The translations under genes were made by a program, and so were the position numbers. The notes beneath the pieces are model-generated. The model saw only the letters and a program-made list of their open reading frames with translations. It was not told where the DNA came from and did not search any database. From IMG/VR virus record IMGVR_UViG_3300028902_000368: a stretch of DNA of 64,000 nucleotides; one strand, given 5' to 3'. Shown here one piece after another: positions 30,141 through 58,168 of the stretch. The stretch comes from a virus. The first letter of the stretch is position 1. Each line of letters starts with the position of its first letter.

Positions 30141-30147
30141 CTCGTTG

Positions 30148-30222
30148 CGCGCTCTGCAGGACTCGAACCTGCAACATCCCGACGCCATAAGCCGGGTGCT
30201 CTACCATTTGAGCTAAGAGCGC
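30148..30222 (-). ncRNA. tRNA-like RNA with 6-bp anticodon stem (loop TTATGGC, nominal ATG)
   Basis: Acceptor GCGCTCT/AGAGCGC; canonical D arm and TTCGAGT T-loop; extra base pair in the anticodon stem. Confidence 0.7.
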
Positions 30223-30225
30223 TCG

Positions 30226-30308
30226 TGGGGGAGGGTGGAATTGAACCGACCTGCCTCCACCGAGACCGCGAGGGTCACGGCGGTGCTCTGCCGATGAGCT
30301 ACTCCCCC
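30226..30308 (-). ncRNA. tRNA-like RNA with elongated anticodon arm and no 7-nt loop
   Basis: Acceptor GGGGGAG/CTCCCCC; CCGCC/GGTGG stem encloses 17 nt containing a GACC/GGTC hairpin. Confidence 0.7.
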
Positions 30309-35017: not shown

Positions 35018-35822
35018 GATCGGTCTCCACGTCGGCGATCGACGTCACGAAGATCGGGAAGGGGCCATCGGATCCGTCACCGCGGAAGTGTAGGCCGCTC
35101 TCGTCGGACGAGACCCTGGTGAACATCTCGACCAGCCGTGCACGCTGCATCGCGTGACGCACCGACAGCGGGTTGCCACGCCCCTGCTGCACCATGCGTT
35201 CGGTGACCGCTGCGGTGACGCTGCTGTTGCAGATCGAGATCCACTGACCGTTCGGCATCCGGGCGGCCGCGAACACTTCGGCGGGCGAATGCTCCATGAC
35301 TTCGCTCAGCAGTTTCCCTGCGCTCACCTCGTAGACCTTCGACATCGGCACGTTCTTGTTCAACGTGCGCAGCACCTCGAAGAACTCGAAGGGGAACTCG
35401 CCCTCGACCGCCACCGCGTAGCTCGTGGACTCGGTACCCGCGCAGATGATCTGGTTGTCCACCACCACGGATGGCACCACCCACACGATGCCCGTCGCCT
35501 CCATCGTGCGCGTGCGGAACCACTTCACCATGGCGGAGGTGTTCGACCGATCGACGACCAGCCCCTTCAAGTGCTCCCAGCGCGCGGGCGTCCCCGCGGC
35601 GAACTTGTAGACGACGGCGCCCGCCAGCACCGCGGCCGCCACCGAGCACAGCTGACCGTTGCGCGAGTGCGGCCCGATGATGGTCGCGGCCCCGGCGAAC
35701 AGGCCGAAGAACCAGACCTCCAGCGGGATGCGGGCGAGCGAAGGGTTCGTCCATCGACCCGCCATGAAGCCGACCATCGCTAGCAAGGCGGGGATGAAGA
35801 CGAAGAGTTCCGCGATCGTCAT
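34992..35822 (-). CDS. Membrane protein with three N-terminal TM segments
   Basis: ATGA overlap; hydrophobic N-terminal 75 aa. Confidence 0.65.
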   Translation of the reverse strand: MTIAELFVFIPALLAMVGFMAGRWTNPSLARIPLEVWFFGLFAGAATIIGPHSRNGQLCSVAAAVLAGAVVYKFAAGTPARWEHLKGLVVDRSNTSAMVKWFRTRTMEATGIVWVVPSVVVDNQIICAGTESTSYAVAVEGEFPFEFFEVLRTLNKNVPMSKVYEVSAGKLLSEVMEHSPAEVFAAARMPNGQWISICNSSVTAAVTERMVQQGRGNPLSVRHAMQRARLVEMFTRVSSDESGLHFRGDGSDGPFPIFVTSIADVETDLRRSAGRG

Positions 35823-36415
35823 GCCACCGCCTCCTGCACGAAGAAGTCCTTCACCCACTCGACCCAGGCCGGAGGGATGTCCTTCGGGTCGAACCTCGGG
35901 CCCATCATCGGCAGATGCTTCGGCTTGTGCGGACGGCGCAGGAGCTTCATGCCCGCCTGCTCCGGCGTCCGGTTCGCCTTCCTCGAGTTGCACGGGTAGC
36001 AGGCCGAGACGATGTTCTCCCAGACCGTCTTGCCACCATGCTCCCGCGGGACGACGTGGTCGTAGTTGAGCTCGTGCATCCGCTTCGGGCTGCCGCAGTA
36101 GCAGCAGCTGAACCCGTCGCGCGTGAACACGTTCATCCTCGAGAACTTGATCGCCTTCTTGAGGCGGGGCGTCGGCTTCGACAGGCGGACCACCGAGGGC
36201 ATGTGGATGGTCAGGTCGCCCTTCTGGTAGATGATCTCGTCGGTGTGCTCCACCACCTCGACCTTGTTCGTGTAGATCATCGTGATCGCGCGATCCCACG
36301 ACACGACCTTGTGGGGCGCATACCCGTTCGTGAGCACGAGTACACGATGCTCGTGCTGACGTTGTGGCGCCCGCTCGACCTCCTCCACGACCCTCTTGCG
36401 TTCCGCCCCGTTCAC
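35819..36415 (-). CDS. HNH endonuclease (McrA-like)
   Basis: VLVL...SW.RA...PSVVRL...FSRMNVFTRDGFSCCYCG...DHVVPR.HGG...WENIVSAC..CN.RK. Confidence 0.92.
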   Translation of the reverse strand: MNGAERKRVVEEVERAPQRQHEHRVLVLTNGYAPHKVVSWDRAITMIYTNKVEVVEHTDEIIYQKGDLTIHMPSVVRLSKPTPRLKKAIKFSRMNVFTRDGFSCCYCGSPKRMHELNYDHVVPREHGGKTVWENIVSACYPCNSRKANRTPEQAGMKLLRRPHKPKHLPMMGPRFDPKDIPPAWVEWVKDFFVQEAVA

Positions 36416-37074
36416 GACAGCACCCTTTTCTCGCACTCGGCCTTGTAGATCATCGCCTCCAAGCGCCGGATCCGTTCATCGTACATCACCGCGCGCGCCA
36501 GTACCGCCACCAGGCACACGGTCCAGCGCATCGCGAGACGGCCACGGGTCACCGAGTCCTTGGTCTCGTGCTCGTCCAGCACCTCCCACAGGATCTTGGT
36601 GACGTAGAGGGGCAACCCGAGCCGATGGCTCTCCTCCACCGCACGCCACTGGTCGAGGTCGCCGCGCATCTCCCGTTCGTGGTCGGCCACGATCGTTAGG
36701 TTGTCTGGACGCGCCGCTTCCACGTGGAGCCGAATCCCCCAGAGGGTCACGTGCTCGCCGATGGCCGTCAGCATCGCCTCTCGAGGTGCCGTCTCGACAG
36801 AGGGGCCCTTGCGGGCGCCTGCCAGCCGGATGAGGGTCGACAACGCGGACACCGTCATCGACTGACGGGATGCACGGGAAGCGTTCCCCACCTCGCACTC
36901 CCACAGGGCCAAGAGCGCGTCCATGACGGCGGACTCGATCCGCTCGGACTCGTCCGCGCCTTGCGCGACTTGGTTCGCCAAGAGCCCCATCGCGTTCGTG
37001 AGCGGCAACGCCTTCACGAGGAAGGCCGTGTCCTCCTCAGCTGCGACGTCAACGATCAGCTTCGCGGGGTTCAT
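36412..37074 (-). CDS. Hypothetical protein
   Basis: GTGA overlap; helical. Confidence 0.65.
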   Translation of the reverse strand: MNPAKLIVDVAAEEDTAFLVKALPLTNAMGLLANQVAQGADESERIESAVMDALLALWECEVGNASRASRQSMTVSALSTLIRLAGARKGPSVETAPREAMLTAIGEHVTLWGIRLHVEAARPDNLTIVADHEREMRGDLDQWRAVEESHRLGLPLYVTKILWEVLDEHETKDSVTRGRLAMRWTVCLVAVLARAVMYDERIRRLEAMIYKAECEKRVLS

Positions 37075-37167: not shown

Positions 37168-37253
37168 TGGTGCGCAGGAGGGGAGTCGAACCCCTACGTC
37201 ACTGAGGACACCAGCACCTCAAGCTGGCGCGGCTGCCATTACGCCACCTGCGC
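37168..37253 (-). tRNA. tRNA-Leu(GAG)
   Basis: CCAGC-TTGAGGT-GCTGG; long variable arm; CCA. Confidence 0.9.
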
Positions 37254-37272
37254 GCGTTCCTTCGCCAGCCTG

Positions 37273-37358
37273 TGCTTGGGAGAGGAGTTGAACCTCCACG
37301 GGCGCGTATGTCCCGCCACGGTCTGAACGTGGTGTGTCTGCCGTTCCACCACCCAAGC
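37273..37358 (-). tRNA. tRNA-Leu(CAG)
   Basis: CCACG-TTCAGAC-CGTGG; long variable arm. Confidence 0.9.
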
Positions 37359-37382
37359 GCGTCAACGTGTTCAGAGAGTCAG

Positions 37383-37514
37383 TGCCGATGCGGGGAGTCG
37401 AACCCCTGGTAGCTTGTGTGCTCGCGCTGTGTGGACCCGTGAAGGTCCGAGGTGCTCAAGCAGGTCTGGAACGAGCCTTATTCGTTTGGGGGTACCGTCC
37501 CCCTTATCATCGGC
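37383..37514 (-). ncRNA. tRNA-like RNA B (132 nt) with giant variable-arm insert; nominal anticodon AAG
   Basis: GCCGATG/CATCGGC; D stem GGGGG/CCCCC; AACGA-ATAAGGC-TCGTT; insert shared with RNA A; TTCGACT T-loop. Confidence 0.75.
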
Positions 37515-37522
37515 GTAATTTC

Positions 37523-37660
37523 CCCGTGTCCGAGATGCTCGTGCTGTTTTTTCTGGTTTGGTAGTGAGCCAAATTGCCAACCACTGGCGCAGCTCCATTT
37601 TGGTGGAGTTGTGAGGAGTCGAACCTCTGCTTGTGAGCACGTGCTGTGTGGACACGGGTA
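37523..37660 (-). ncRNA. Circularly permuted tRNA-like RNA C (3' half 37601-37660 precedes 5' half 37523-37596); nominal anticodon CAC
   Basis: ...TTCGACT CCTCA CAACTCC A CCA AAAT GGAGCTG...; TTTGG-CTCACTA-CCAAA; free ends pair as GGACACGGG/CCCGTGTCC. Confidence 0.7.
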
Positions 37661-37661
37661 G

Positions 37662-37786
37662 TCGGGGAGTTGGGAGTCGAACCCAAGAGCTTGTGTGCTC
37701 GCGCTGTGTGGACCCGTGAAGGTCCGAGGTGCTCGAGCAGAGTTCCAATGTTGCGGATTGGTGTCCTTCCGTGGACTTACTCCCCG
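37662..37786 (-). ncRNA. tRNA-like RNA A (125 nt) with 58-nt variable-arm insert; nominal anticodon GCA
   Basis: CGGGGAG/CTCCCCG; GTCC/GGAC; CCAAT-CCGCAAC-ATTGG; TTGGG-TTCGACT-CCCAA. Confidence 0.75.
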
Positions 37787-37838: not shown

Positions 37839-37866
37839 ACTCTACCCATAATCGGGCACGTGTCAA
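37839..37866 (-). promoter_or_regulatory. Sigma70-like promoter of the tRNA-like cluster
   Basis: TTGACA-N16-TAGAGT. Confidence 0.6.
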
Positions 37867-38450
37867 GGCCCGATGGAAGAACGCACGAAACTCGGGGCGA
37901 TCTCGTAGTTCACGCGCTGCTCGTGGACCAGGAAGAGGCGGGCCGCCTCCGCGAGGTACGCCGACACGATGCCCACGAACGGCAGGAACGCGCCATCCTC
38001 GCACGTCGCCACGCCCGCGCCGGGCTCGTCGTCGATCTGGAAGCGCTCGTCCCAGACCACCCGCCCGTACGCGCCATCGGCCGCCAGGCCACCGTGGAGG
38101 CACGGGATGCCGCGCGCGCGCACGTAACCCTGCACGATGCGCCGGGATGCCCCGTTGTCCAGGCAGTCGATCACCAGCGCGGATCCACCCAGGAGTTGCT
38201 CCTCGTTGTCGGCCGTCAGGCGGTGCGGCACCGTCTCCACGCGGCGGTTGAACAGGAAGTGCATCTGCTGCGCGAGCGCCGACACCTTCGGCTTCCCGAT
38301 CCCCGGCATCCCGAGGAACTGGGACTGCGTGTTCTTCGACTCGACCCGGTCGAAGTCGATCACACGCAGGACCGTGTCCGTGCTTCGCAGGAACTGCGTC
38401 ACGTGCGACCCCAGCGCGCCCGCACCCACGATCGTGACCATCTTCTTCAT
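37863..38450 (-). CDS. ThiF/MoeB (E1-like) adenylyltransferase
   Basis: IVGAGALGS, VIDFDRVESKN..SQ, IGKPKV, VIDCLDN..SR and C-terminal Cys (VATCED). Confidence 0.9.
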   Translation of the reverse strand: MKKMVTIVGAGALGSHVTQFLRSTDTVLRVIDFDRVESKNTQSQFLGMPGIGKPKVSALAQQMHFLFNRRVETVPHRLTADNEEQLLGGSALVIDCLDNGASRRIVQGYVRARGIPCLHGGLAADGAYGRVVWDERFQIDDEPGAGVATCEDGAFLPFVGIVSAYLAEAARLFLVHEQRVNYEIAPSFVRSSIGP

Positions 38451-38611
38451 GATGAGGCCTCTTCCTTCGGCACGAACTCTTCGCAGTCGCACGCTTCCAT
38501 CCGCATGGAGCCGGGCGCGCAGCCAGTGACCACTTGGCAGCCCTCGACGTCGTCGTGCACCGACTCGAGGTGGCCGCACCGCCGACACACGCGCGCGCTC
38601 TCGTCAGGCAT
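38447..38611 (-). CDS. Small Cys/His-rich protein
   Basis: CRRCGH..H..GC...CDC; ATGA overlap with the E1 gene. Confidence 0.55.
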   Translation of the reverse strand: MPDESARVCRRCGHLESVHDDVEGCQVVTGCAPGSMRMEACDCEEFVPKEEASS

Positions 38612-38813
38612 CGTCCGCCTCCAACGTTTCCTTGGCCTCGAGCTCGCTGAGGCCGCGCTCCAACGCGAGCCGGAGCACCGCCGCCATCGACACCCTGATG
38701 CCGCACGCCCGCTTCGACAGCGTCGCGGCCAACGCCTTCGCACGAGCCGCCGTCTCTTCGGAGACGCTGACGGTGAGGGTGACCTGCACCGTGTCCTTCT
38801 TGGGCCTCCCCAT
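38604..38813 (-). CDS. Ribbon-helix-helix-like small regulator
   Basis: MGRPKKDTVQVTLTVSVSEE...SMAAVLRLALERGL. Confidence 0.6.
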   Translation of the reverse strand: MGRPKKDTVQVTLTVSVSEETAARAKALAATLSKRACGIRVSMAAVLRLALERGLSELEAKETLEADDA

Positions 38814-38820
38814 CGCCCCT

Positions 38821-39081
38821 CTACTTGGCCGCCAGGGTCGACAGGGTCTCGCTGAGCTTCTCGATGGCCGTGACCAGCTCGAGCTGCACCGCAAGCGCCT
38901 GTAGCTCGCGGGATCGCACCCGGTAGGCCGGACAGTGGGGGTTGGTGCAGTAGGCCTCCGTGCCCTCTTGGTACGTCGGCCAACCGCATGGCGGGTCGGG
39001 GAACGACGGGGAAAGGGCAACCGCGCAGGTGCCCTGACGGATGCGCAGTCGCTGCGACGACGTGCCGACGACGTGGTTCAT
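38821..39081 (-). CDS. Hypothetical protein
   Basis: ATGA overlap; Cys motif. Confidence 0.5.
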   Translation of the reverse strand: MNHVVGTSSQRLRIRQGTCAVALSPSFPDPPCGWPTYQEGTEAYCTNPHCPAYRVRSRELQALAVQLELVTAIEKLSETLSTLAAK

Positions 39082-39758
39082 CGCCGAACCGTTCCGGCGA
39101 GACCGAGCGCCGCCAGGTCCTCTTCGGTGAGCTTCGCCAGGGCGCGGGCGCGAGCCGCCCCCTCGTCTTCGACGAGCATCTGCACCTCCTCGCCGAGCAG
39201 GTAGAGCTTGCCGTCCCACTCGACCATCCGCTCGGTGGCCTGATGGACGTCGGCGTCGGCCCCGAACACCCCGCGGCCCTTGGCGCACTGGCTCGCGAGG
39301 GCCAGGCTCGAGGACCGGCCGATCACGACCCTATCACCACGCCCTTCGCATGTGTCCGTGTTGCTGACCACTTGGTAGTGCGTGAACTCGTAGACGGTCG
39401 CGTTGCGAGTGGACGGCTTGGCCGCCGCCTCCACCGCACCGACGAGGACGATGATGGTCTCGCCGATGCGGATCTCGTCTCCGACCTTGATCTTGGCCTT
39501 GCTGACGCACACCCCGTTCAACAGCACACGGCCGGAAACGCCGATGTCGATCAGCATGAGGTCCCCGGGGCTCGCGCCAACCTCGATGACCGCCTGCATG
39601 CGGGCTGCGGTCGGTTCGGTGAGCCTGATGTGTGCGCCCTCGTCACGCCCGATCTTGACCAGGTATTCCGTCACCAACACGGTTTCTGGGAGACCTTTGG
39701 CGTAGATCGCGGCGACCGAGGACACGGTGAAGTGCAGCGTCATCTTTCGCTTGGCCAT
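39078..39758 (-). CDS. Degenerate FHA-domain protein
   Basis: KIGRD...IRL..P..ARMQAVIE...LIDIG...LLNG...IKVGDEIRIGET. Confidence 0.65.
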   Translation of the reverse strand: MAKRKMTLHFTVSSVAAIYAKGLPETVLVTEYLVKIGRDEGAHIRLTEPTAARMQAVIEVGASPGDLMLIDIGVSGRVLLNGVCVSKAKIKVGDEIRIGETIIVLVGAVEAAAKPSTRNATVYEFTHYQVVSNTDTCEGRGDRVVIGRSSSLALASQCAKGRGVFGADADVHQATERMVEWDGKLYLLGEEVQMLVEDEGAARARALAKLTEEDLAALGLAGTVRR

Positions 39759-39765
39759 GGGTTCC

Positions 39766-40092
39766 TCAGCGCCGGTTGACGACAGCGCCAGAGACGCTGC
39801 CCGACACGTTGCCGCAGTTCACCGCGTTGCCGTGCACGCTGCCGCCCACGGCCTCGCAGTTGACGACGTTCGCGCGCACGTCGCCTTGGACGTCGCCGCA
39901 GCGGACGTCGCCGCCGTGGACCGTCAGGTTCGCCAGCGGCCCCTCCCACTGGATCGTGGTGGGGCCCCCGTCCTTGCTCGTCTGCGCGACCTCGCGGCCG
40001 TCCACGACGACACGGCCGTTGCTGACCGTGACGCTGTTGCTGTCGCCCTCGATCACGATGCGACGACCGTTGACGATGATGACGCTGCTCAT
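39766..40092 (-). CDS. Gly/Val/Asn-rich beta-solenoid-like phage protein
   Basis: Repeating V.CG.V.G.V motifs. Confidence 0.65.
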   Translation of the reverse strand: MSSVIIVNGRRIVIEGDSNSVTVSNGRVVVDGREVAQTSKDGGPTTIQWEGPLANLTVHGGDVRCGDVQGDVRANVVNCEAVGGSVHGNAVNCGNVSGSVSGAVVNRR

Positions 40093-40094
40093 GG

Positions 40095-40373
40095 TCAGGT
40101 CCCGAACGGCACCTTCGGCCGCACCATGAAGCGCGTGTAGGGGTACTGCTCGGACGGGTCGACCCGGTCGACCACGAAGTCGCGGCTGAAGTCGGCCCGC
40201 GGGTCCGCCGGGATGCCGGGGAAACCCCCCGTGCGCACCGCCTCGGTCACGATCGCCAGCACCTGCGCGTCCGTGCTGTCCAACGCCACCGCGTCGGGCA
40301 GGTCCACGTTGCGCGAGACGCCACCCGGGCTGTAGGTCAGGTTCACCAACGCCTGATTCGCTTCGATTGCCAT
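40095..40373 (-). CDS. Putative ubiquitin-like protein ending RPKVPFG-T
   Basis: About 92 aa with beta-grasp-like pattern and C-terminal Gly plus one residue; near the E1 and JAB genes. Confidence 0.55.
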   Translation of the reverse strand: MAIEANQALVNLTYSPGGVSRNVDLPDAVALDSTDAQVLAIVTEAVRTGGFPGIPADPRADFSRDFVVDRVDPSEQYPYTRFMVRPKVPFGT

Positions 40374-40431
40374 GAGGATTCTCCTGTTGTCGGATGGTCC
40401 TAGCATGGCCCGCACGGGTACGCCAGATGGG

Positions 40432-40785
40432 TCAGTCGCCCTCGTCGCGGAACAGCTCGCGTCCCTCCGAGTAGTGCATCTTGGTGTCGGCGGGGAAGAT
40501 CCGGAAGTAGTCGATCTCGTGGAAGGACACGTTCTTGGTCCCCCTCTGGGTGCGCTTGAACCAGTCGGCCAGCGCCCCCTCCAAGAGCGCGTGTGGGCTC
40601 TCGCAGTCGCACCACGTACCGTCCATGCCGTCCCACTGACGGACCACGAACCCCTGGTCGCTCTCGGGCATCACCTGGTGCAGCGTCAGGTAGCGCGCGT
40701 AGGCCTGCGCCACGATCGACTCGTCGCCGGCAGCCACGTCGGTCACAGCGTCCTCCAACGTGCGCTCTTCCGCGTCCGGAACCAC
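40432..40785 (-). CDS. Hypothetical phage protein (start uncertain)
   Basis: WDGMDG.W.D...IDYFRIFPADT.M motif. Confidence 0.6.
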   Translation of the reverse strand: MVPDAEERTLEDAVTDVAAGDESIVAQAYARYLTLHQVMPESDQGFVVRQWDGMDGTWCDCESPHALLEGALADWFKRTQRGTKNVSFHEIDYFRIFPADTKMHYSEGRELFRDEGD

Positions 40786-40968
40786 GACGACTGGTCGGGC
40801 TTGACCCGGTAGGGCACGTGCTCGGCCGCAGGGCGCTCGATCGCCTTGCGGAACCATCCGCACGGTTCCCAGGCCCCGTGGTCTTCACGAACGCCATCGG
40901 CGCTCGGACCTCGAAGCGCAGCGGGCGCTCCATGACCGTCAGGAGTCGCTTCAACCGACGCCAGTGCT

Positions 40969-41478
40969 TCATGGGAGCACCTTCAGTCCCGTGTAGACCT
41001 CGATCCCGCGGAGCCGTGTCTCGCTGATCGACATGCGCCGCTCCAGCTCCTCGATCCGGTCTTGCTCCGGGGTCTCGACCAAGAGGCCGAGGCTCGCGAA
41101 CATCGCCGCGTTGAAGTCCCGGAACGAGCACTCCTTACGCAGGAGCCTCTCCGGCCGGACCCACTTCGCCGTCAGCCCCGTCTCGGCGATGAGCTTCGGC
41201 GGAGCGGGGGTGCCGAGGGTGACCGAGTAGACGTACGCCATCCGCCCGGAGGTCGTGCCCGTCTCCCGCTGATAGACGAGTTGGAGCTGGTTCGGGTGGA
41301 TCTCCAGCCCCGTCTCCTCCTCGAGTTCGCGCGCCGCCCCGTAGACCGCGATCTCGTGCGGCTCGAGCTTCCCTCCGGGGAGGTTGAGATCCTGCTCGTT
41401 GTTGCGGCGGCTCACGGCCACGATGAAGCCCTGCCACCACACCAGCACGAGCCCCGCAGGCGGAAACTGCGTCGTCAC
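40969..41478 (-). CDS. NUDIX hydrolase
   Basis: Nudix box GGKLEPHEIAVYGAARELEEETGL. Confidence 0.9.
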   Translation of the reverse strand: MTTQFPPAGLVLVWWQGFIVAVSRRNNEQDLNLPGGKLEPHEIAVYGAARELEEETGLEIHPNQLQLVYQRETGTTSGRMAYVYSVTLGTPAPPKLIAETGLTAKWVRPERLLRKECSFRDFNAAMFASLGLLVETPEQDRIEELERRMSISETRLRGIEVYTGLKVLP

Positions 41479-42143
41479 GTGTCACCTCGACAGTCGAGCG
41501 CGTATTTCATGTACTTCACGATGCCCGCCGACTGCGTCGCGTACAAGTGCGGACGCACCGCAGGCACACGAATCGCCACCCGCAAGAGGTCGATGATGCC
41601 AACGCCACGCAAGCGGTCCAGCCCCTCGCAGAGCAGCCCGAGGCGCGCCTGCGGCCCCACCCTCGCCGGGATCGCGGTCTCGTAGCTGTCCACCAGGCGC
41701 GCGCACGCCATCGACAGCTGGTCCGGGGTCGAGAGCGCCAAGAGCAGGATCCGCCAAGGAAGGTCGTCCGGAGGCTCGGTGACCAGGTAGTCGACCACCT
41801 GCATCCCTTGGCGCTTCTGGCGGTGGTCCCCCTCCGTCAGGGCGAACATCTTGACCCGGCAGACCCGACTGTCGCTGATCGACATGATCCACCAGTCGAC
41901 CGGTCGCCCGAGCCCGTACACCGACTCCACGTTGCGGAAGGTCGTGAGGTCGGTCGACGACGGCATCGGCGGTCCATAGCCAGGGTGGGAGTGCGCCACG
42001 CCCGCGAGGTTTCCCGCCGCGTGGTGCTTGAGCAGTTCGTCCCAGAGCCGCTCCTCCGGCAGGTAGCCGACCGAACGGTCCTTGGGCGTGTGGTGGTAGA
42101 GCACCTCGCCTGACGTCCCCAGCACGATCGCAGCCTCGAGCAT
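41475..42143 (-). CDS. JAB/MPN-domain metalloprotease (deubiquitinase-like)
   Basis: N-terminal Glu and HSHP-x7-S-x2-D (AHSHPGYGPPMPSSTD). Confidence 0.85.
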   Translation of the reverse strand: MLEAAIVLGTSGEVLYHHTPKDRSVGYLPEERLWDELLKHHAAGNLAGVAHSHPGYGPPMPSSTDLTTFRNVESVYGLGRPVDWWIMSISDSRVCRVKMFALTEGDHRQKRQGMQVVDYLVTEPPDDLPWRILLLALSTPDQLSMACARLVDSYETAIPARVGPQARLGLLCEGLDRLRGVGIIDLLRVAIRVPAVRPHLYATQSAGIVKYMKYALDCRGDT

Positions 42144-42148
42144 CGTCC

Positions 42149-43147
42149 TCACCCAACCCTTCGGTACACCACCAACTTGTTCTCCCGGATGGCCTGGCGG
42201 ACCACCGTCGGGATCGATTCCAGGGTGAGCATCGTGTCGCCCTTCTCCCCCGCGTCGAACCCGTCGTCCCCGTGCGACGTCAGGCAGATGCCCGCGTCCA
42301 CGATCTGGAGGGTCCGGGCGATGCACACGCACTCGAGGCGATGCTGCTGCACCCGGTAGCGGACCACCATCTCCCCCCGACGCGCCGACGCACGGTGGTC
42401 CAGGTACTCGGCGCCCCCGACCCGCAACGCCGCCTGGGCGGCCGCCCGGAAGTCGGTCGCCGCGAGCTCTCGGCGGCTCTCGGCCGTGCCGATCGTCCGC
42501 ATCAGCTCGGCCCGCCGCTCCTCCAAGCGCCGACGCTCCTCGGCCTCCCGCTCCTGCCGCTCGATCTCGAGGCGCCGCCGCTCCGCCTCCTCCTTCTGGA
42601 AGACCTCCATCCGGAAGGCCATCTCGAGCGCCGGGACGACCCCCTTGACCGCCCGGAGCCCCGCCAGGCCTCCACCGTCCAGGAAGACCTGGTTGGCCTC
42701 TCCCTCGGGCCCCAGGGGCATCACGCGCCCCATGTAGACGAGGGGACCGTGCTCGTGGATGCGGCCCACTTGGATGTGCTCGAACCGGTCCAAGCCCGGC
42801 TCCACCAGGTGCACCCGCTCGGTCTCCGTCCCGATCCGCTCGAACTTCCACGGGTTGAAGCCCGTCCTCGACGACGGCACGAACCGATCGCCCGCCAGGT
42901 AGCCCTGCTGGACGTCGACCAGGTGGGGCTGCCACTGCTCCGGGCTCTGGAAGACGTCGTCCTCCGGCACCGACCGCAGGAACAGCGCTCGGCCGTTCGT
43001 CTTGGTCGCGAAGACGCACCAGCTGTGCTCCACGGGCAGAGGGCCCTCGATCTTCCACCCGACCACCCCACGGCGCAGCTGGCGGCCCCCCAGCCAGGGG
43101 AACCACTGCTCCGTCGGGGCCTGCTCGAGGAACCGCGCGTAGCTCAT
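42149..43147 (-). CDS. Hypothetical protein upstream of JAB; candidate E2-like component
   Basis: Coiled coil, then a C-terminal domain RLECVC...LQIVDAGICL...TLESIP; only a 5-nt gap to JAB. E2 role is inference. Confidence 0.45.
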   Translation of the reverse strand: MSYARFLEQAPTEQWFPWLGGRQLRRGVVGWKIEGPLPVEHSWCVFATKTNGRALFLRSVPEDDVFQSPEQWQPHLVDVQQGYLAGDRFVPSSRTGFNPWKFERIGTETERVHLVEPGLDRFEHIQVGRIHEHGPLVYMGRVMPLGPEGEANQVFLDGGGLAGLRAVKGVVPALEMAFRMEVFQKEEAERRRLEIERQEREAEERRRLEERRAELMRTIGTAESRRELAATDFRAAAQAALRVGGAEYLDHRASARRGEMVVRYRVQQHRLECVCIARTLQIVDAGICLTSHGDDGFDAGEKGDTMLTLESIPTVVRQAIRENKLVVYRRVG

Positions 43148-44958: not shown

Positions 44959-46551
44959 CTAGGTCCGTTCGCTGTAGTGGCCCGGGTCGCGGCCGAAGCA
45001 CGCCGCCCGCACCATCGCCGGCACCTTGCCCGTGTTGCGGACCTTCACGACGATGAACTGCCCGGGCTGCGCCGCGGTCCACTTCGTGCCCACCCCCACG
45101 GACTCGACGCCGTACGCCGTCCCCGGCACGACCCCGAGCCCGTCCGAGTCGAACATCGACTTGCCGCCCACCCGGACGTCCTCGACCACGATGTCGCTGA
45201 GCTGTTGGCAGTTCAGCAGGAAGCGCTCGTTCTGGAATGGCGCCTCGACCCGCACCCGCAACGACTCGACCCCACCGGGCGGCACCAGCGTCTCGGGGAA
45301 CTGCAGGGTCAGCGTGCGCTCGACCGCCCACGCGGACGGCGACTCCGGATCGATTCGCGAGAGCACCTTGCGCAGGCGCTTCGCCGCCTCCTTGACGTTC
45401 TCCGCCGTGATGTCGATGTCGAGGCCGCCGCCCTTGAGCACGATGTGGACGCGCTCCTTCTTGCGCGCCTTCTTCTGGTCACGCCGACGCGCCTCGTCGA
45501 CCAGCGCCTTCGTGAGCTCGAGGAGGTTGCCCTCCACACGCCCCACGGTCGCCGCCGTCGCCGTCGCCACCGCGTTCGAGAACACCCGCTCGTTGATGTC
45601 GCGGATGCGGCGACGCTGCTCGATCTCCTGGATCTTCTTCCACGCCTCCACCCGCTCTTCCTCCGTCCCCGAGAAGAGCTTCGCCCGGAGACCGTGCAAC
45701 TCCACCACGTCGGGGAGCGACTGCCCGAAGGTGTCCGACGGCGGGAAGGCCGCGGGCGGCGCGATGGGCGGCGGCGGGACGGCCGGGGTCGGCGGCACCG
45801 CCGGAGCCTCCGACGCTTGGGCGGGCTGCTCGGTCGCACGGGCGCCCTTGGCCCCCTTCTTCGTCGCGGTCTTCTTCGTGGTCTTCGCGGCCATCGTCTT
45901 CTCCTTCAGGCGTTCGTTCAACTGCTGATCCATGCGTTTGTTGTAGTCGTCCACCGACTCGACCGTGTGAGCCCCCTTCGGGTTTGGACATTGGAAGGGC
46001 GTGGCGAAGCTCGCGAAGGCCGCGCACCCGGTCCTGCGAATGACCTCTGCGCTGTCCTCGGCGGCCGCGCGGCTTGGACACATCATGTGGCGCCGCTGGC
46101 CATCCGGGCAGAGGATCATGTGAGGCACCGCCGGAGCCTCGCCTGGCGTCGCAGCACCCTTCTTCGTGGTCTTCACAGCCATCGTCGTCTTATCCTTCAT
46201 GTGTTCAACCAGTCGCTGATCCACGCGCTTGTTGTAGTCGTCCACCGACTCGACCTTGTGCGGACCCTTCGGATTGGGGCACATGCGCGGTTCGGTGCTA
46301 GAGAAGGCTGTGCACCCGACGCAGCTGCAGCGTAGAGCCTCCGCAACAGCCTCGGCCGCAGCGCGGCTGGGACATGTCGGGTGGCGACGCCGACCGTCCG
46401 GGCAGAGGATCATGTGAGGAACCTCGGCTGGCGATATCGTCACGCGCCAAGGCACCCCTTGGAAAGTGCCGGAGGTCGTCGTCGGGACGGGCGGGGGCGT
46501 GGGCCCTTGGCGTACAGCGCGTGCGTTCGTGACAGCGCACCTCTTGGCCAC
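44959..46551 (-). CDS. Multi-module protein: duplicated Cys/His module plus C-terminal copy of the 3518-4087 beta-domain (start uncertain)
   Basis: Two copies of VPHMILCPDG...CPNPKG.H.VESVDDYNKR; C-terminal TLTLQFPETLVP...ERF...VVEDVRVGGKSMF...VRNTG...RAACFG. Confidence 0.7.
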   Translation of the reverse strand: MAKRCAVTNARAVRQGPTPPPVPTTTSGTFQGVPWRVTISPAEVPHMILCPDGRRRHPTCPSRAAAEAVAEALRCSCVGCTAFSSTEPRMCPNPKGPHKVESVDDYNKRVDQRLVEHMKDKTTMAVKTTKKGAATPGEAPAVPHMILCPDGQRRHMMCPSRAAAEDSAEVIRRTGCAAFASFATPFQCPNPKGAHTVESVDDYNKRMDQQLNERLKEKTMAAKTTKKTATKKGAKGARATEQPAQASEAPAVPPTPAVPPPPIAPPAAFPPSDTFGQSLPDVVELHGLRAKLFSGTEEERVEAWKKIQEIEQRRRIRDINERVFSNAVATATAATVGRVEGNLLELTKALVDEARRRDQKKARKKERVHIVLKGGGLDIDITAENVKEAAKRLRKVLSRIDPESPSAWAVERTLTLQFPETLVPPGGVESLRVRVEAPFQNERFLLNCQQLSDIVVEDVRVGGKSMFDSDGLGVVPGTAYGVESVGVGTKWTAAQPGQFIVVKVRNTGKVPAMVRAACFGRDPGHYSERT

Positions 46552-47789: not shown

Positions 47790-48752
47790 TTAGCCGCTGG
47801 TCCCTCCCAGCATCCGCGCACCCAAGGCCCGCAGGTAGTCTCGTCCGAAGCGGCCGTCCTCGATCTGTTCGACCATCCACGGCTCGAGGGGCATCCCGGT
47901 GAGCGCCAAGATCCCACACGACAGCGCTCCCACCGTGTCGGTGTCCCCGCCTTGCTTGATGGTGAGCTCGATGGCGTGGCGGACGCTCTGCGCCTCGTGG
48001 ACGACGCGCAGGACCGCCCGAACCGTCAGCCACGCCAGGCTGTCGCTGTCGGCGCCTCCGCCCTCGACGCGACCGTAGTAGGGTTCGCAGAGCCACCGGA
48101 GCGGGTCGGGCACCTGACCGAACCTGCGCGTGTCGCCCGTAACCATGAGCATCCTGCGACGCAGCTCACCGGCGAACGTGGTTCGGTCCATGCCAGCCTT
48201 CGCCATCGACGCCAGCATCGCCACGGCCATGGACGACCAGCAACCGCTGAGGCTGTCGTGGGTGAGCTTGGCCCCGAGTTGCGCATGCACCGCCGTCGCG
48301 TCGACGGCATAGCCCAAGAGCCCGTAGGGGATGGCGCGCATCGCCGCTCCGTTCTTCTCCGAGTTGTTGCGGCCGTAGAGGCGGGTCATCAGCTCCTGCC
48401 CATCCGACACGGTCGCCAGAACGGACTGGAATCCCCGCGCGTACCCCGGGCGGCGATCGCGGTTGAAGACGCGCACGACCGCGTTCGCGAGGCCAGGGAT
48501 GCTCATCTGCGCCTCGAGCAGCGACTCCACCACGGCGATCGTCATCTGCGTGTCGTCGGTGTACCGGCCCGGCGGCAGTTCGAGGGCCGTCGACCCCACG
48601 AACCGACCCACGTCCAGTGTCGTGAGCGTCTTCACCACGATCGGGTCGTCCGGCTTCACGAACTCGGTCGAGATGCAGGCCGCGTCCCCCACGGCCATCG
48701 CCAAGAGCCAGTCCTCGCGGGCCGCCCGATGCGGATCGTCGGGCGGCTTCAC
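47790..48752 (-). CDS. ADP-ribosylglycohydrolase (DraG/ARH family)
   Basis: AVGDA, YTDDTQMT, NGAAMR, THD and GGDTDTVGA. Confidence 0.92.
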   Translation of the reverse strand: MKPPDDPHRAAREDWLLAMAVGDAACISTEFVKPDDPIVVKTLTTLDVGRFVGSTALELPPGRYTDDTQMTIAVVESLLEAQMSIPGLANAVVRVFNRDRRPGYARGFQSVLATVSDGQELMTRLYGRNNSEKNGAAMRAIPYGLLGYAVDATAVHAQLGAKLTHDSLSGCWSSMAVAMLASMAKAGMDRTTFAGELRRRMLMVTGDTRRFGQVPDPLRWLCEPYYGRVEGGGADSDSLAWLTVRAVLRVVHEAQSVRHAIELTIKQGGDTDTVGALSCGILALTGMPLEPWMVEQIEDGRFGRDYLRALGARMLGGTSG

Positions 48753-54276: not shown

Positions 54277-54278
54277 CG

Positions 54279-54349
54279 TGCGAGTCCGGGGAGTCGAACC
54301 CCGAGCAGTCTTCGCGTCAGGAAGACCAGGTACCGTACCGTCGACTCGC
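54279..54349 (-). tRNA. tRNA-Val(GAC)
   Basis: Loop CTGACGC; TTCGACT T-loop; atypical D arm. Confidence 0.75.
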
Positions 54350-54350
54350 G

Positions 54351-54423
54351 TGCACCGCTTGGGGATCGAACCCAACTCTCCCGCGTATCAGACGGGCGAC
54401 CTCTACCAGAGGACCAGCAGTGC
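54351..54423 (-). tRNA. tRNA-Ile(GAT)
   Basis: Loop CTGATAC. Confidence 0.85.
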
Positions 54424-54424
54424 G

Positions 54425-54492
54425 TAGGACGCCAGGGAATCGGACCCTGTCGCGCGCCGTGTGAGGGCATGCTCCCTTCCAAGGGGCGTCCC
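54425..54492 (-). tRNA. tRNA-Val(CAC)
   Basis: Loop CTCACAC; T-loop TCCGATT; short. Confidence 0.7.
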
Positions 54493-54498
54493 GTGTCG

Positions 54499-54570
54499 TC
54501 GGCGTGGGGAGAATCGAACTCCCGAAATCTCGGTCCCGAACCGAGTGACCTACCACTGGCCTACACGCCG
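54499..54570 (-). tRNA. tRNA-Pro(CGG)
   Basis: Loop TTCGGGA. Confidence 0.9.
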
Positions 54571-54642
54571 TCTCGTTCACGAACTCGAGCCTACATGCTC
54601 GAGGTGGGCTCTGCAACCCATACACGACCCATGTGCGGGCCG

Positions 54643-54717
54643 TTGGTCAGCCTGGCGAGAATCGAACTCGCGACCTCTCCCTCCCCAAGGGAGCGCGCTA
54701 CCAGTGCGCTACAGGCT
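54643..54717 (-). tRNA. tRNA-Pro(GGG)
   Basis: Loop TTGGGGA; CCA. Confidence 0.9.
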
Positions 54718-54725
54718 GATGGTGG

Positions 54726-54795
54726 TTGGGGTGGCTGGTGTCGAACCAGACGCATACCCGGTTCAAGGCCGAGACGCCCTCCGAGGGACACCCCA
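54726..54795 (-). tRNA. tRNA-Gln(TTG)
   Basis: 5' TGGGGTG; loop CCTTGAA. Confidence 0.75.
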
Positions 54796-54796
54796 G

Positions 54797-54865
54797 TGGC
54801 TGCGAAGGGAGTCGAACCCTCGTGGTCACCCTTATGAGGAGCGCCCGTCTCCGAGACACGCAGCC
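54797..54865 (-). tRNA. tRNA-Met(CAT) (elongator Met or Ile2)
   Basis: Loop CTCATAA; short D arm. Confidence 0.75.
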
Positions 54866-54866
54866 G

Positions 54867-54938
54867 TGGATGCAGGGCCAGGTACTGCCCCTGGTCGCCG
54901 GGGTTATGGGCCCCAGCCAGCCTCTTGGCTTCCCTGCG
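54867..54938 (-). tRNA. Initiator-like tRNA-Met(CAT)
   Basis: C1.A72 mismatch; G-C-rich anticodon stem; T-loop GGCAGTA; CCA. Confidence 0.7.
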
Positions 54939-54939
54939 G

Positions 54940-55008
54940 CCCCCCGTGGTGGAGTTGAACCACCTACCCGACCTTCGGAGGGTCGGCGCCAGAGCCGCTG
55001 GACGGGGG
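54940..55008 (-). tRNA. tRNA-Arg(CCG)
   Basis: Loop CTCCGAA. Confidence 0.8.
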
Positions 55009-55010
55009 TC

Positions 55011-55499
55011 TCAGCCGATCGCGTTGTTGAACGCCGTCTTGTAGCCCTTCTTCCAGGCATCGGACTGGTCGGTGTCGTAGTGGACCATGAGGTCGCTCGG
55101 GTTCGCCGACGGGTCGATGCTCAGCGTCGCGATCGCCGCGAGGCCGTCCGCACGCCCCACCTGCGCACCGGCGTTGTAGTCGTCGGCGCCATCCGACGTG
55201 CTCGAGGGGCTCGGGCCGTACGCACCCGGGGGCCGCACTGGCTCGGCGCCCGGCGACGTCGTCACCCCACCCGGCAGCTTGCTCGGCTTGGGCAGCGAGA
55301 CCGTCGGCACCGTGGTCACCTTCTTCTTCGGCGGCACGGCGGCCGCACCGAGGCCAGCGGCCTGCTTCTTCTTGTAGGCCCGGTAGAGCACGATGCCACC
55401 GACGGCGAACCCACCCACGAGGGCGATGGTCCCCCACGGGATCGGCTTCTTGGCGAGAGCAGCGGAGGGGGTGGCGGGCATGGTGGCCATCCCCGGCAT
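55011..55499 (-). CDS. Membrane-anchored Pro/Ala-rich protein inside the tRNA cluster
   Basis: WGTIALVGGFAVGGIVLY-RAYKKK anchor resembles those of the left-end proteins. Confidence 0.65.
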   Translation of the reverse strand: MPGMATMPATPSAALAKKPIPWGTIALVGGFAVGGIVLYRAYKKKQAAGLGAAAVPPKKKVTTVPTVSLPKPSKLPGGVTTSPGAEPVRPPGAYGPSPSSTSDGADDYNAGAQVGRADGLAAIATLSIDPSANPSDLMVHYDTDQSDAWKKGYKTAFNNAIG

Positions 55500-55504
55500 C
55501 GTAG

Positions 55505-55574
55505 CACCCCCAGGTCGAATTGAACGACCGCAACCAACATTCGTAGTGTCGGCGCCGGATCCACCGGTGGGGGC
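55505..55574 (-). tRNA. tRNA-Arg(ACG)
   Basis: Loop CTACGAA. Confidence 0.8.
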
Positions 55575-55705
55575 AAATGGTGCCATGCTGTCCACGGAAA
55601 CGGCCATCGCCGCCTCATGTTCAGACCATGCCTGCTCGGGACCTGGTCCAAGAACCGCTCGGCCGAACGGTTCCTGGTAGGTGCCTCTTGCACCGGAGCA
55701 GGAGC

Positions 55706-55780
55706 TGGCGATCCCGAGGGGAGTCGAACCCCCATTTCCGCTGTGAGAGAGCGGTGGCCTGACCCTTAGCCGACGGGACC
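55706..55780 (-). tRNA. tRNA-Glu(CTC)
   Basis: Loop CTCTCAC; CCA. Confidence 0.9.
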
Positions 55781-55781
55781 G

Positions 55782-55854
55782 TGGAGACGTGGAGGGGAGT
55801 TGCACCCCATCTACGCGGTTTTGCAGACCGCGGCGCTCTCTGGAGCACCACGTC
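55782..55854 (-). tRNA. tRNA-Cys(GCA)
   Basis: Loop CTGCAAA; U73; CCA. Confidence 0.85.
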
Positions 55855-55858
55855 GTTG

Positions 55859-55932
55859 TGCACCCAGCGGGAGTCGAACCCAGCATCCCGCGCTTGAAAG
55901 GCGCGTGGCCTTACCACCTAGCCTATGGGTGC
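55859..55932 (-). tRNA. tRNA-Glu(TTC)
   Basis: Loop CTTTCAA. Confidence 0.85.
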
Positions 55933-56198
55933 GTCGCCCCCTCCCCAGGAATCGAACCCGGCGGCGCGGGCTTAGAAGGCCCAGCCTCGTCCAGCGTGGA
56001 GGAGTCTACCGGGGCGAGCTCGCGCAGGACGCCGCTCGCCAGGTGCGTTCTCGCGCGACCCAGCGCCCGCTCGAGCGACCCGTGGTGGCACTCGTCGGCC
56101 GCCTCCTCGTTGAGCAGGTGCTGGCAGCTCTTGCACCGCTCGATCGAGTCGAGCACGTTCACGAGGTCGCGCAGCAACCCATCGGACTTGTTGGCCAT
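55923..56198 (-). CDS. Possible small protein whose 3' end overlaps tRNA-Arg(TCT)
   Basis: MANKSDGLLRDLVNVL...CKSC; GC3-rich 5' part. Confidence 0.35.
   Translation of the reverse strand: MANKSDGLLRDLVNVLDSIERCKSCQHLLNEEAADECHHGSLERALGRARTHLASGVLRELAPVDSSTLDEAGPSKPAPPGSIPGEGATHP
55937..56004 (-). tRNA. tRNA-Arg(TCT)
   Basis: Loop CTTCTAA; minimal D arm. Confidence 0.7.
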
Positions 56199-56200
56199 CG

Positions 56201-56273
56201 AGCGTGTGGCGGGAATCGAACCCGTCCTGTCCTTCCTTGGCAAGGAAGTGCCTCACCAGTCGGCCTCACACGC
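56201..56273 (-). tRNA. tRNA-Gly(GCC)
   Basis: Loop TTGCCAA; U73. Confidence 0.9.
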
Positions 56274-56277
56274 ATTG

Positions 56278-56360
56278 CGGAGGGTAGAGGAGTCGAACCC
56301 CCACGTTTCACCGTGACCCGGTTTTCGAGACCGGTTGCCCGCCACTGAGCATTACCCTCC
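56278..56360 (-). tRNA. tRNA-Ser(CGA)
   Basis: Loop CTCGAAA; long variable arm; G73. Confidence 0.9.
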
Positions 56361-56362
56361 AG

Positions 56363-56956
56363 TCAACTCTCCTTCACCACTGCGGCGCCGAACAGCGCCA
56401 TGTTCTCGATCTGCAACGCGGATGCTGGGTCGAAGTGGAACTCGATGGAGTCCCCCTTCTCGGCCCAGTCTTCTCCACCGATCAGCGCCCCCAGCATCGC
56501 GCCCACCTCCGCATCGACCTCCGCAGCGACCTCGAGCCACCGCTGGGTGGGGCCCTCGGCCGCCAGCTCCAGCTCCTGCTGCGTGAGGCGACTCTTGATC
56601 TCGTCCGTCGGGCCTGCGACGACCCTGAGCGGCAACGGGGCCGCCAGCACCGCCGTCTTGCCGACCATGATCTGCTCGAGCCACTCGCTGCCCGTCAGCG
56701 CCGCTCGAGCCACCTTGAGCGTGAGGACGACCCGCTCCATCCGGAACGGCCGCGCGAGATCCTTGGCGATCCAGACCGACGGGTCACCTTCCTTCTGCAC
56801 CAGCACCACGCACGCGGTCGCGTGAGGCGGGCAGTGCCGCTGAGGCAGGCTGTGCCGCTGTGCCGCAGCTCGGATCCCGGCGATGACGTCCGCCGGAGCG
56901 TCCATCTTCTCCATGGCGTCGCCGATGACTTCTCCCAGGACCTTCGGTTCGGACAT
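56363..56956 (-). CDS. Hypothetical protein
   Basis: Preceded by a TTGACG promoter and the recurring motif. Confidence 0.65.
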   Translation of the reverse strand: MSEPKVLGEVIGDAMEKMDAPADVIAGIRAAAQRHSLPQRHCPPHATACVVLVQKEGDPSVWIAKDLARPFRMERVVLTLKVARAALTGSEWLEQIMVGKTAVLAAPLPLRVVAGPTDEIKSRLTQQELELAAEGPTQRWLEVAAEVDAEVGAMLGALIGGEDWAEKGDSIEFHFDPASALQIENMALFGAAVVKES

Positions 56957-57005
56957 GCCCGAAGTTACCCATGTGCGGGCCATGCCGTCAAGTGACCAAC
57001 ATCAG

Positions 57006-57077
57006 AGCGAGTGACCGGACTCGAACCGGCACCTCAGGGCTTGGAAGGCCCGCGCGCGACCATCGCGCCGCACCCGC
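57006..57077 (-). tRNA. tRNA-Gly(TCC)
   Basis: Loop CTTCCAA; U73. Confidence 0.9.
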
Positions 57078-57251
57078 AGGGAACGGTCTGCGCGTCCGCA
57101 GACCGGCTCGTGAAGGGCACGTAGCCACCCAACGAGGGGTTGAACCCCCATCCCCGCGCCTGGGGCTCCGTGACGCGGGTGACGGCGTGCGTTTCCACTT
57201 CGCTAACGCACAAGGCTTACCGAGGCCTTATCATCCCGGCATTGTGGCTTG

Positions 57252-57323
57252 AGCCAGTCGCGGGAGTCGAACCCGCCCCTCGTCCGTACCAAGGACGCGC
57301 CCCCCCACGGGGACCTGACCGGC
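57252..57323 (-). tRNA. tRNA-Thr(GGT)
   Basis: Loop TTGGTAC. Confidence 0.85.
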
Positions 57324-57326
57324 ATG

Positions 57327-57398
57327 TGGTCCAGCTGACGCCACCACTCCGCTCTTCGGCACGTTGGCGCCCGCGAACGAAGTGGTCACGCCAGCTGG
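57327..57398 (-). ncRNA. Rod-shaped RNA ending in ACCA, between two tRNAs
   Basis: 11-bp plus 9-bp stems (CCAGCTGGCGT/GCGTCAGCTGG; ACCACTTCG/CGGAGTGGT), then ACCA. Confidence 0.45.
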
Positions 57399-57399
57399 G

Positions 57400-57470
57400 T
57401 GGACTCGAGGGGAATCGAACCCCCAACTCCTCATTGCGAACGAGGTGCTTGCCCTTCAAGCTACGAGCCC
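57400..57470 (-). tRNA. tRNA-Ala(CGC)
   Basis: Loop TTCGCAA; G3:U70. Confidence 0.9.
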
Positions 57471-57534
57471 GGGAGCGCGACAGCGATGAGGCAGCGACGC
57501 GCGAAACGCACGTGGCCGCTCACCGAAGTCGCGG

Positions 57535-57605: not shown

Positions 57606-57609
57606 GAAG

Positions 57610-57691: not shown

Positions 57692-57696
57692 GATGT

Positions 57697-57931: not shown

Positions 57932-57932
57932 G

Positions 57933-58167: not shown

Positions 58168-58168
58168 A

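Follow-up and report, generated by a model that had tools for sequence, protein, structure and literature searches.

Triads consisting of a ubiquitin-like protein (Ubl), an E1-type activating enzyme and a JAB protease are known from archaea, from bacterial sulfur metabolism and from antiphage defence. Here, a set of this kind was analysed in a 64-kb stretch of DNA from the virus record IMGVR_UViG_3300028902_000368; the whole of this stretch is referred to below as the window. Four minus-strand genes encode, in order of transcription, a protein of 332 amino acids (p332; 42149-43147), a JAB (JAMM/MPN+) metalloprotease of 222 amino acids (41475-42143), a Ubl of 92 amino acids (40095-40373) and ThiF, a minimal E1-like adenylating enzyme of 195 amino acids (37863-38450). 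All four open reading frames (ORFs), which had been located in a preliminary description of this DNA, were found to be present and intact. The same four genes, together with a gene for a vWA-domain protein, formed a conserved collinear module, vWA-p332-JAB-Ubl-ThiF, at 80 loci, including 73 IMG/VR contigs. With a little less than even confidence, we read the window set as a phage copy of a conserved module for Ubl activation and transfer in which p332 serves as a carrier without the UBC fold.

Archaeal sampylation (SAMP1-3, UbaA and HvJAMM1) and the Thermus TtuB/TtuC system with its JAMM protease share several features with the module, namely, a small Ubl of beta-grasp fold that has a glycine at its C-terminus, a single-domain E1 that resembles MoeB and has a loop cysteine, a JAMM protease, and the lack of a UBC-type E2 conjugating enzyme or an E3. 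However, the E1 of the window is shorter (approximately 190 amino acids), lacks the zinc-binding CxxC site and has no rhodanese partner, and the Ubl ends in Phe-Gly after an invariant RPK[TV]P rather than in Gly-Gly. In addition, p332 and the vWA partner with its metal ion-dependent adhesion site (MIDAS) have no counterpart in these systems, and the module is borne by huge phages. The MoeB-MoaD and ThiF-ThiS pairs, with CysO/Mec+ and QbsE/QbsD, include the proteins closest in sequence to the E1, and the same docking of the Ubl tail was predicted for the module. In CysO/Mec+ and QbsE/QbsD, JAB removes the residues that follow the terminal glycine, as is proposed here. In contrast to these pairs, the module contains no sulfurtransferase or synthase gene, its Ubl lacks Gly-Gly, and its conserved partners comprise a vWA protein together with an OB-like protein that has a conserved cysteine.

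The Bil system (BilA Ubl, BilB E2, BilC JAB and BilD E1) and the CBASS proteins Cap2 and Cap3 also bring together E1, JAB and a conjugated C-terminus in one operon, and the trimming or reversal of the linkage by JAB is a common feature. The module differs from both in having no UBC-fold E2, no E1-E2 fusion and no CD-NTase, and its Ubl is a single beta-grasp domain without a sequence match to known families. In PADLOC, ThiF matched only the E1 half of the Cap2 (E1-E2) models, with E 3e-12 or weaker, and no match was obtained for the Ubl, JAB or p332. Because a UBC-type E2 was lacking and PADLOC gave only the E1 half of Cap2, membership in Bil or CBASS, the systems with which the set had been compared, was not supported. 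The ThiF profile also matched the BubCD structures 9ea4 and 9ea5 (E 4e-5). The Bub operons likewise represent a non-canonical bacterial Ubl pathway, whose post-E1 enzymes depart from the eukaryotic pattern, but the E1 match was distant, and searches in Pfam, NCBIfam and PADLOC linked neither p332 nor JAB nor the Ubl to a Bub-type partner. Other operons with E1, JAB and Ubl were listed by Iyer et al. in 2006 (PMC1779556); the vWA-p332-JAB-Ubl-ThiF arrangement is not among them. Neither the module nor its occurrence in huge phages was found to be described in the literature searched. Judged by this literature, what is new here is a version of the Ubl-E1-JAB set that is conserved across a clade of huge phages, with a separate Ubl family and with p332 and the vWA protein as additional partners.

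ThiF matched the Pfam family PF00899 with 81.1 bits (cut-off 28.1), and comparison of its family profile with the PDB retrieved MoeB (E 3.5e-18), Uba4, ThiF, TcdA, Uba5 and the E1s of SUMO and ubiquitin. The set of adenylation residues was complete: the glycines of GxGxxG (G9, G11 and G14), K55, D95, D98-N99 (DxxDN) and R103 were invariant in 36-66 orthologues. Cys150, in the sequence T-C-E, was 98-100% conserved and was aligned to the cysteine-bearing MoeB loop above the adenylation site; it is a putative catalytic residue. Homologues were numerous (1896 at E<=1e-20 after 90% clustering) and mostly approximately 191 amino acids long. Because the orthologues had a uniform length of 189-207 amino acids, it could be concluded that the enzyme is a bare adenylation domain; the PDB matches spanned this domain only, and ThiF had no zinc-binding CxxC site and no C-terminal or ubiquitin-fold domain. 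A canonical eukaryote-type E1 (Uba1, Uba2 or Uba3) was ruled out, since a protein of 195 amino acids with no separate catalytic-cysteine or ubiquitin-fold domain does not conform to this type.

The Ubl gave no sequence match in Pfam, NCBIfam, PHROG or the PDB, and viral contigs searched with this one sequence yielded no match either. Its structural model, with a predicted local distance difference test (pLDDT) value of 92, displayed the order strand-strand-helix-strand-strand with beta-grasp topology, and its structural neighbours were almost all Ubl domains (those of NLE1 and WDR12, PB1, parkin, Fubi, ISG15, ubiquitin, SUMO and MoaD). Since Z was at most 4.9 in these matches, the fold was supported but homology was not. 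The sequence RPK[TV]PFG was nearly invariant in 17 database homologues and 64 orthologues derived from the loci. Gly91 was the last conserved position (98-100%) and was followed in the window protein by a single residue, Thr92. In the 64 orthologues, the unconserved tail after this glycine consisted of 0 residues in at least 7 proteins and of 1 residue in 20, and the longest tail had 61 residues. Conservation that stops at a glycine and is followed by tails of variable length is the pattern expected of a trimmed precursor, and Gly91 is the predicted activated C-terminus of the Ubl. The residue before it was phenylalanine, in place of the glycine of the classical Gly-Gly terminus.

Two observations concern the tails themselves. 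In Virus Rctr197k (KX853510), the Ubl (Rctr197k_224; locus 10000-10500, minus strand) ran 62 residues past the conserved glycine. At four huge-phage loci (L046, L048, L050 and L061), the tail was a short, zinc-ribbon-like CxxC peptide, reminiscent of ubiquitin fused to zinc-ribbon ribosomal proteins.

A complex of the ThiF dimer with residues 1-91 of the Ubl was modelled. The median score was 0.83, compared with 0.00 for the best control; this mark was attained by 58 of 80 solved complexes and by 2 of 110 mismatched pairs. In the model, residues 85-91 of the Ubl touched residues 9-14 (P-loop), 96-100 (DxxDN) and 148-150 (the Cys150 loop) of ThiF. The Ubl tail was thus placed by the prediction in the adenylation site in the geometry of MoeB-MoaD, which speaks for likeness to this pair and not for binding as such.

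The window JAB protein scored 19.4 bits against Prok-JAB (PF14464), below the cut-off of 25, and 30 of its 33 relatives matched this family (E<=0.01; best E 1.4e-6). Residues E3, H51, H53, S62 and D65 were conserved in 100% of 67 orthologues, and the JAB profile aligned the HxH..S..D motif with that of Rpn11, weakly (E 0.14). The catalytic domain occupied approximately residues 1-100 of the window protein, and a C-terminal extension of approximately 90 residues was absent from most orthologues, which had 122-140 amino acids.

Because conservation ends abruptly at Gly91, the JAMM site is intact, the adenylation site is accompanied by a loop cysteine and the docking model joins the Ubl tail to this site, it is very likely that the three proteins constitute a real triad for Ubl activation and trimming. 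The identities given to them in the preliminary description were therefore upheld: ThiF as an E1 by its Pfam score, adenylation residues and MoeB-type profile match, JAB by its invariant E/HxH/S..D motif and the Prok-JAB matches of its relatives, and the Ubl by its beta-grasp model and Ubl-domain neighbours. The E1:Ubl complex whose prediction had been suggested there was also obtained, as a model, with the tail at the adenylation site.

The distribution of the genes was analysed with hidden Markov models of the five module proteins, which were run on the six-frame ORFs of the 80 loci; the 73 IMG/VR loci had been obtained by a pattern scan with the p332 alignment, and many of their contigs were 200-619 kb long. 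At 75 of the 80 loci, all five genes were present on one strand and in an identical order, with variable insertions between them, and a module gene on the opposite strand was found at none of the 80. The p332 gene always adjoined the JAB gene, often with a 4-nt overlap in the related loci. Because the same order and strand, together with the vWA gene, recurred at 75 of 80 loci, the grouping of the four window genes is far beyond chance.

The module was also found as a compact operon in bacteria (Myxococcales/Labilithrix). The Myxococcales operon, which was located through the Ubl homologue P0014, encodes a VWA_2 protein of 596 amino acids, a protein of 316 amino acids, JAB (125 amino acids), Ubl (84 amino acids), ThiF (194 amino acids) and an 88-amino-acid ORF; a second bacterial locus was arranged alike, and all four window proteins were homologous to their counterparts in the Myxococcales operon. 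The p332 C-terminal domain was present in 9 of the 401 species genomes sampled from the phylum of the Labilithrix carrier; therefore, the module is sporadic in bacteria and common in one group of huge phages. The comparison of phage and chromosomal neighbourhoods that had been suggested thus yielded a single five-gene order shared by huge phages and Myxococcales/Labilithrix. At bacterial loci of two lineages (L002 and L006), the module adjoined genes resembling those of type II secretion or type IV pili (T2SSE, T2SSF and N_methyl pilin), and immunity-protein genes (Imm30 and SUKH) were also near it at L002.

The vWA partner possessed a complete, invariant MIDAS motif. Pfam VWA_2 was matched at its C-terminus only, and a profile of 27 sequences matched only vWA domains in the PDB. 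Ro60/TROVE identity was considered for this protein and was unconfirmed at the sequence level, since neither Pfam nor the 27-sequence PDB profile gave a Ro60 match.

The structural model of p332, predicted with AlphaFold2, had a pLDDT of 91.3. It comprised two OB-like barrels (approximately residues 11-76 and 77-150), a helix of 45 residues (172-217) and a C-terminal domain (222-332). Matches of OB, S1 or CSD type were weak but recurred in each of the five fold libraries that were searched with the model of the whole protein as the query (Foldseek-PDB, VIA-wide, AFDB clusters, Swiss-Prot and Atlas). The C-terminal domain consisted of helices and a four-strand meander followed directly by the invariant G286-x-C288-L (D-A-G-I-C-L), and it resembled small helix-plus-sheet domains (DsbC-N-like and YpmB). 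Of the cysteines in ECVC...DAGICL, Cys288 was invariant in 54 of 54 members and Cys273 was conserved in 50 of 54; G286, L309 and E310 were also invariant. The family comprised 288 representatives and had no family assignment. In the record of Virus Rctr197k, the p332 homologue (14441-15463, minus strand, KX853510) is unannotated, and an opposite-strand ORF, Rctr197k_234, is given at this place.

Cys288 is the sole E2-like property of p332, one which would be necessary for an E2 and is not sufficient. Neither NCBIfam nor PADLOC nor an Atlas feature search gave an E2 signal for the protein, and a PDB profile search with the C-terminal domain returned nothing meaningful, the best match being PRORP2 at E 0.07, which was taken as chance. 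Together with the results of the fold libraries and Pfam given below, these searches speak against p332 as a UBC-fold E2. The preliminary description was thus accurate as to a 332-amino-acid protein with a cysteine-bearing C-terminal domain, and Cys288 proved invariant, but the E2 identity, with the UBC fold suggested for this domain at 42149-43147, found no match in any search. p332 is not demonstrably an E2, and the negative is not final, because the fold of the C-terminal domain was searched only inside the whole model.

From the folds or motifs computed for the four proteins, together with their conservation, their synteny and the docked E1:Ubl model, the following pathway may be inferred. 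The JAMM protease would remove Thr92 and expose Gly91 of the Ubl. The dimeric minimal E1 would then bind the Ubl, the RPKVPFG tail would enter the ATP site, and Gly91 would be adenylated; the Ubl would probably be held afterwards as a thioester on Cys150 of ThiF. The activated Ubl could next be passed to the invariant Cys288 of p332, a carrier that would stand in for an E2 while lacking the UBC fold, and the tandem OB-like domain of p332 would select the target for conjugation, most likely an RNA-bound or translation-linked protein. The JAMM protease may also reverse the linkage. Protein conjugation as opposed to sulfur transfer is modestly favoured because none of the conserved partners is a sulfur enzyme, the Ubl lacks a Gly-Gly terminus and a protein with an invariant cysteine is tightly coupled to the triad. 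That p332 itself is a thioester carrier is possible but doubtful. If it is, a fold other than UBC would have acquired an E2 function; otherwise, E2-free conjugation would extend to viruses.

Several findings weigh against the pathway with p332 as the carrier. No UBC, RWD or UEV match to p332 was found in the five fold libraries, in which its C-terminal domain was queried only within the whole model, and none of the Pfam E2 families matched the 54 members at E<=1. An HPN-type motif was absent before Cys288, where the sequence reads ..L-Q-I-V-D-A-G-I-C. The Ubl ends in Phe-Gly and not in Gly-Gly. The score of the modelled complex may partly reflect memory of MoeB-MoaD-type structures. No vWA gene was detected in the 64-kb window by tblastn or with the family hidden Markov model, even at E<=10, whereas 75 of 80 loci have all five genes; the window copy is incomplete and interrupted, with four of the five module genes in the correct order. 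Finally, E1-only systems such as SAMP/UbaA conjugate without an E2, and therefore a carrier is not required.

The last point leads to the main rival of the p332 carrier, namely, E1-only conjugation of the sampylation type. In this case, ThiF alone would activate the Ubl and transfer it to lysines, p332 would be the main substrate, an adaptor or a Ubl-regulated RNA-binding effector, and Cys288 would have another role in redox chemistry, metal binding or catalysis. Such an arrangement is consistent with the lack of any E2 fold or sequence signal in p332, with the E2-independent conjugation known for minimal E1s with a loop cysteine in archaea and Thermus, and with the docking of E1 and Ubl, which needs no third protein. 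It is nevertheless rather unlikely, since it leaves aside the cysteine of D-A-G-x-C-L, invariant across 54 diverse p332 members, and since the tight and often translationally coupled linkage of p332 with JAB, Ubl and E1 fits an enzymatic partner better than a substrate.

The genomic setting of the module was also considered. In the window, it lies between transfer RNA (tRNA) arrays of the same strand (54278-59056, 30147-30308 and 37168-37358), and most of the 53 related phage loci had the same setting, with up to 45 tRNA genes within 10 kb on either side. Transfer-messenger RNA (tmRNA) genes were located near the module at four loci (L022, L043, L070 and L073), and no tRNA genes were found near it at the seven bacterial loci. 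The gene neighbourhood points towards RNA or tRNA biology, and not towards the more speculative purposes suggested in the preliminary description, namely, the tagging of host defence proteins or the modification of virions of competing phages. The placement in tRNA arrays, taken together with the OB-like domains of p332, suggests a link of protein tagging to phage-encoded translation components. In its furthest form, which we consider improbable, this link would mean that the Ubl is passed through Cys288 of p332, as an RNA-binding OB-fold carrier without the UBC fold, to proteins on tRNA-like RNAs, or conceivably to the ends of these RNAs. If this were true, huge phages would have gained ubiquitin-like control of their own tRNA and translation apparatus, and p332 would be a convergently evolved and structurally new class of Ubl-conjugating enzyme.

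The same setting, however, could be claimed for a sulfur carrier. The Ubl would then be adenylated and receive a C-terminal thiocarboxylate, Cys288 of p332 would act as a persulfide relay, the final acceptor of the sulfur would be a base in tRNA or a small molecule, and JAB would merely mature the carrier, as in CysO/Mec+ or QbsE/QbsD. MoeB, Uba4 and ThiF are the closest solved relatives of the E1, the N-terminal half of p332 resembles RNA binders of the S1, CSD and OB types, the module lies within tRNA (and tmRNA) arrays at most of the 53 phage loci, and trimming of sulfur carriers by JAB is established (PMC1779556). Against this, the conserved operon contained no rhodanese, cysteine desulfurase, PP-loop ATPase or synthase, and no sulfur-transfer or cofactor genes were found among the conserved partners or between the module genes of the window, in agreement with the earlier statement that sulfur-carrier and cofactor-synthesis companions were lacking. 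Known sulfur carriers end in Gly-Gly and not in Phe-Gly, sulfur transfer offers no role for a vWA partner, and the seven bacterial loci have no nearby tRNA genes. A role as a sulfur carrier is therefore decidedly improbable.

Because the genes are phage-borne and hosts are known to have Ubl systems acting on phages, the phage JAB, a decoy Ubl or both might strip or compete with host Ubl conjugation, such as virion tagging by Bil or the priming of CBASS by Cap2. Such counter-defence is very unlikely, since bacterial chromosomes also carry the complete set, arranged there as a compact operon, co-variation ties JAB to the Ubl and E1 of its own module, and in PADLOC neither a Cap3 nor a Bil model was matched and Cap2 was matched only in its E1 half. 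It is scarcely credible that the window set is a decaying remnant whose four genes, having lost vWA and received six insertions, no longer cooperate: the 64 kb hold no vWA gene and the genes are spread over 5.3 kb, but the four intact ORFs keep every family-invariant residue, neighbouring genes retain 4-nt overlaps, a 93-98% identical relative retains the genes, and fragments occurred in two metatranscriptome assemblies, in which DNA carry-over is possible.

The viral origin of the window, as first described, is likely. The window had approximately 67% G+C; it contained 29 tRNA genes, each of them on the minus strand, and encoded a DnaB-type helicase (phrog_19, E 1e-100) and further proteins of phage families. 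Its sole relative among 50,697 phage records was Virus Rctr197k (KX853510), a partial genome of 197 kb from an enrichment culture, and IMG/VR relatives of its module lay on contigs of up to 619 kb. It may be concluded from the 29 tRNA genes, the helicase, the kinship with Rctr197k and these contigs that the DNA is likely virus-encoded. The same DNA was found in bioreactor metagenomes. The relative with 93-98% identity retained all four module genes, and two metatranscriptome assemblies contained short contigs of a 95-99% relative; since DNA carry-over is possible, expression is not claimed.

The four genes had been regarded as a single gene run. They are indeed grouped on one strand, but the run is not compact, since six unrelated genes split the four and spread them across 5.3 kb. 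In order of transcription, the run contains p332, JAB, a NUDIX hydrolase (40969-41478; Pfam E 4.7e-11), a protein of 143 amino acids (40432-40863, between JAB and the Ubl), the Ubl, a protein of 108 amino acids (39766-40092, directly downstream of the Ubl; phrog_3163, function unknown in PHROG, E 1.4e-8), an FHA-domain protein (39078-39758; Pfam E 1.9e-8), an RHH-like ORF of 70 amino acids (38604-38816; weak Pfam RHH match), a zinc-ribbon-like ORF of 53 amino acids (38447-38608, between the Ubl and ThiF) and ThiF, all on the minus strand. Several neighbours in this run share 4-nt overlaps; for example, the start of the NUDIX gene overlaps the JAB stop by 4 nt. Homologues of the NUDIX, FHA, RHH-like and zinc-ribbon-like proteins and of the 143-amino-acid protein were found at none of the 80 related loci, and the 108-amino-acid protein had a homologue at just one other locus. 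Their absence from other loci, save for this one match, speaks against the six genes as module members; they are lineage-specific inserts that split the window set. The insert at 38447-39758, with the zinc-ribbon-like, RHH-like and FHA genes, is probably not part of the module. Another bioreactor metagenome (run X5) contained a strain of approximately 97% identity in which 37 bases at 38583-38619, the junction of the RHH-like and zinc-ribbon-like ORFs, were swapped for 478 others.

The downstream flank of ThiF (37168-37775, minus strand) contains tRNA-Leu(gag), tRNA-Leu(cag) and three T-arm-like elements. The latter are hairpins of the GGTTCGACTCC type at 37378-37775 on the minus strand, in the stretch that separates tRNA-Leu(cag) from the stop of ThiF. 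They are each preceded by a long hairpin, and one of the three ends in ..CUCCACCA; a 53-nt repeat is present in two copies, 37411-37463 and 37688-37740, that are 98% identical. The T-arm-like elements were not called as tRNA by ARAGORN or Rfam, and their folding z-scores were only -0.2 to -2.2. A contig over 37434-37740 was present in two metatranscriptome assemblies. The Rfam search, which would also report Y RNA or other RNAs, gave tRNAs only. At 30147-30308 on the minus strand, two neighbouring tRNAs were called by ARAGORN, a tRNA-His whose anticodon is ATG and one of 84 nt whose anticodon has four bases (gacc). The two were above the Rfam tRNA threshold; they may have been miscalled or may decode in an unusual way.

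Three further minus-strand genes were observed around the run. An ORF of 530 amino acids (44959-46551) contains a motif of approximately 30 residues twice (PHMILCPDG.RRH..CPSRAAAE) and gave no Pfam or PHROG match. A protein of the ADP-ribosylglycohydrolase family (PF03747, E 3e-31) is encoded at 47790-48752, 4.6 kb upstream of p332. Just past the tRNA-Leu pair, at 35819-36436, lies a gene for an HNH endonuclease (HNH_5, E 5e-14), homologues of which were found near the module at 26 related loci.

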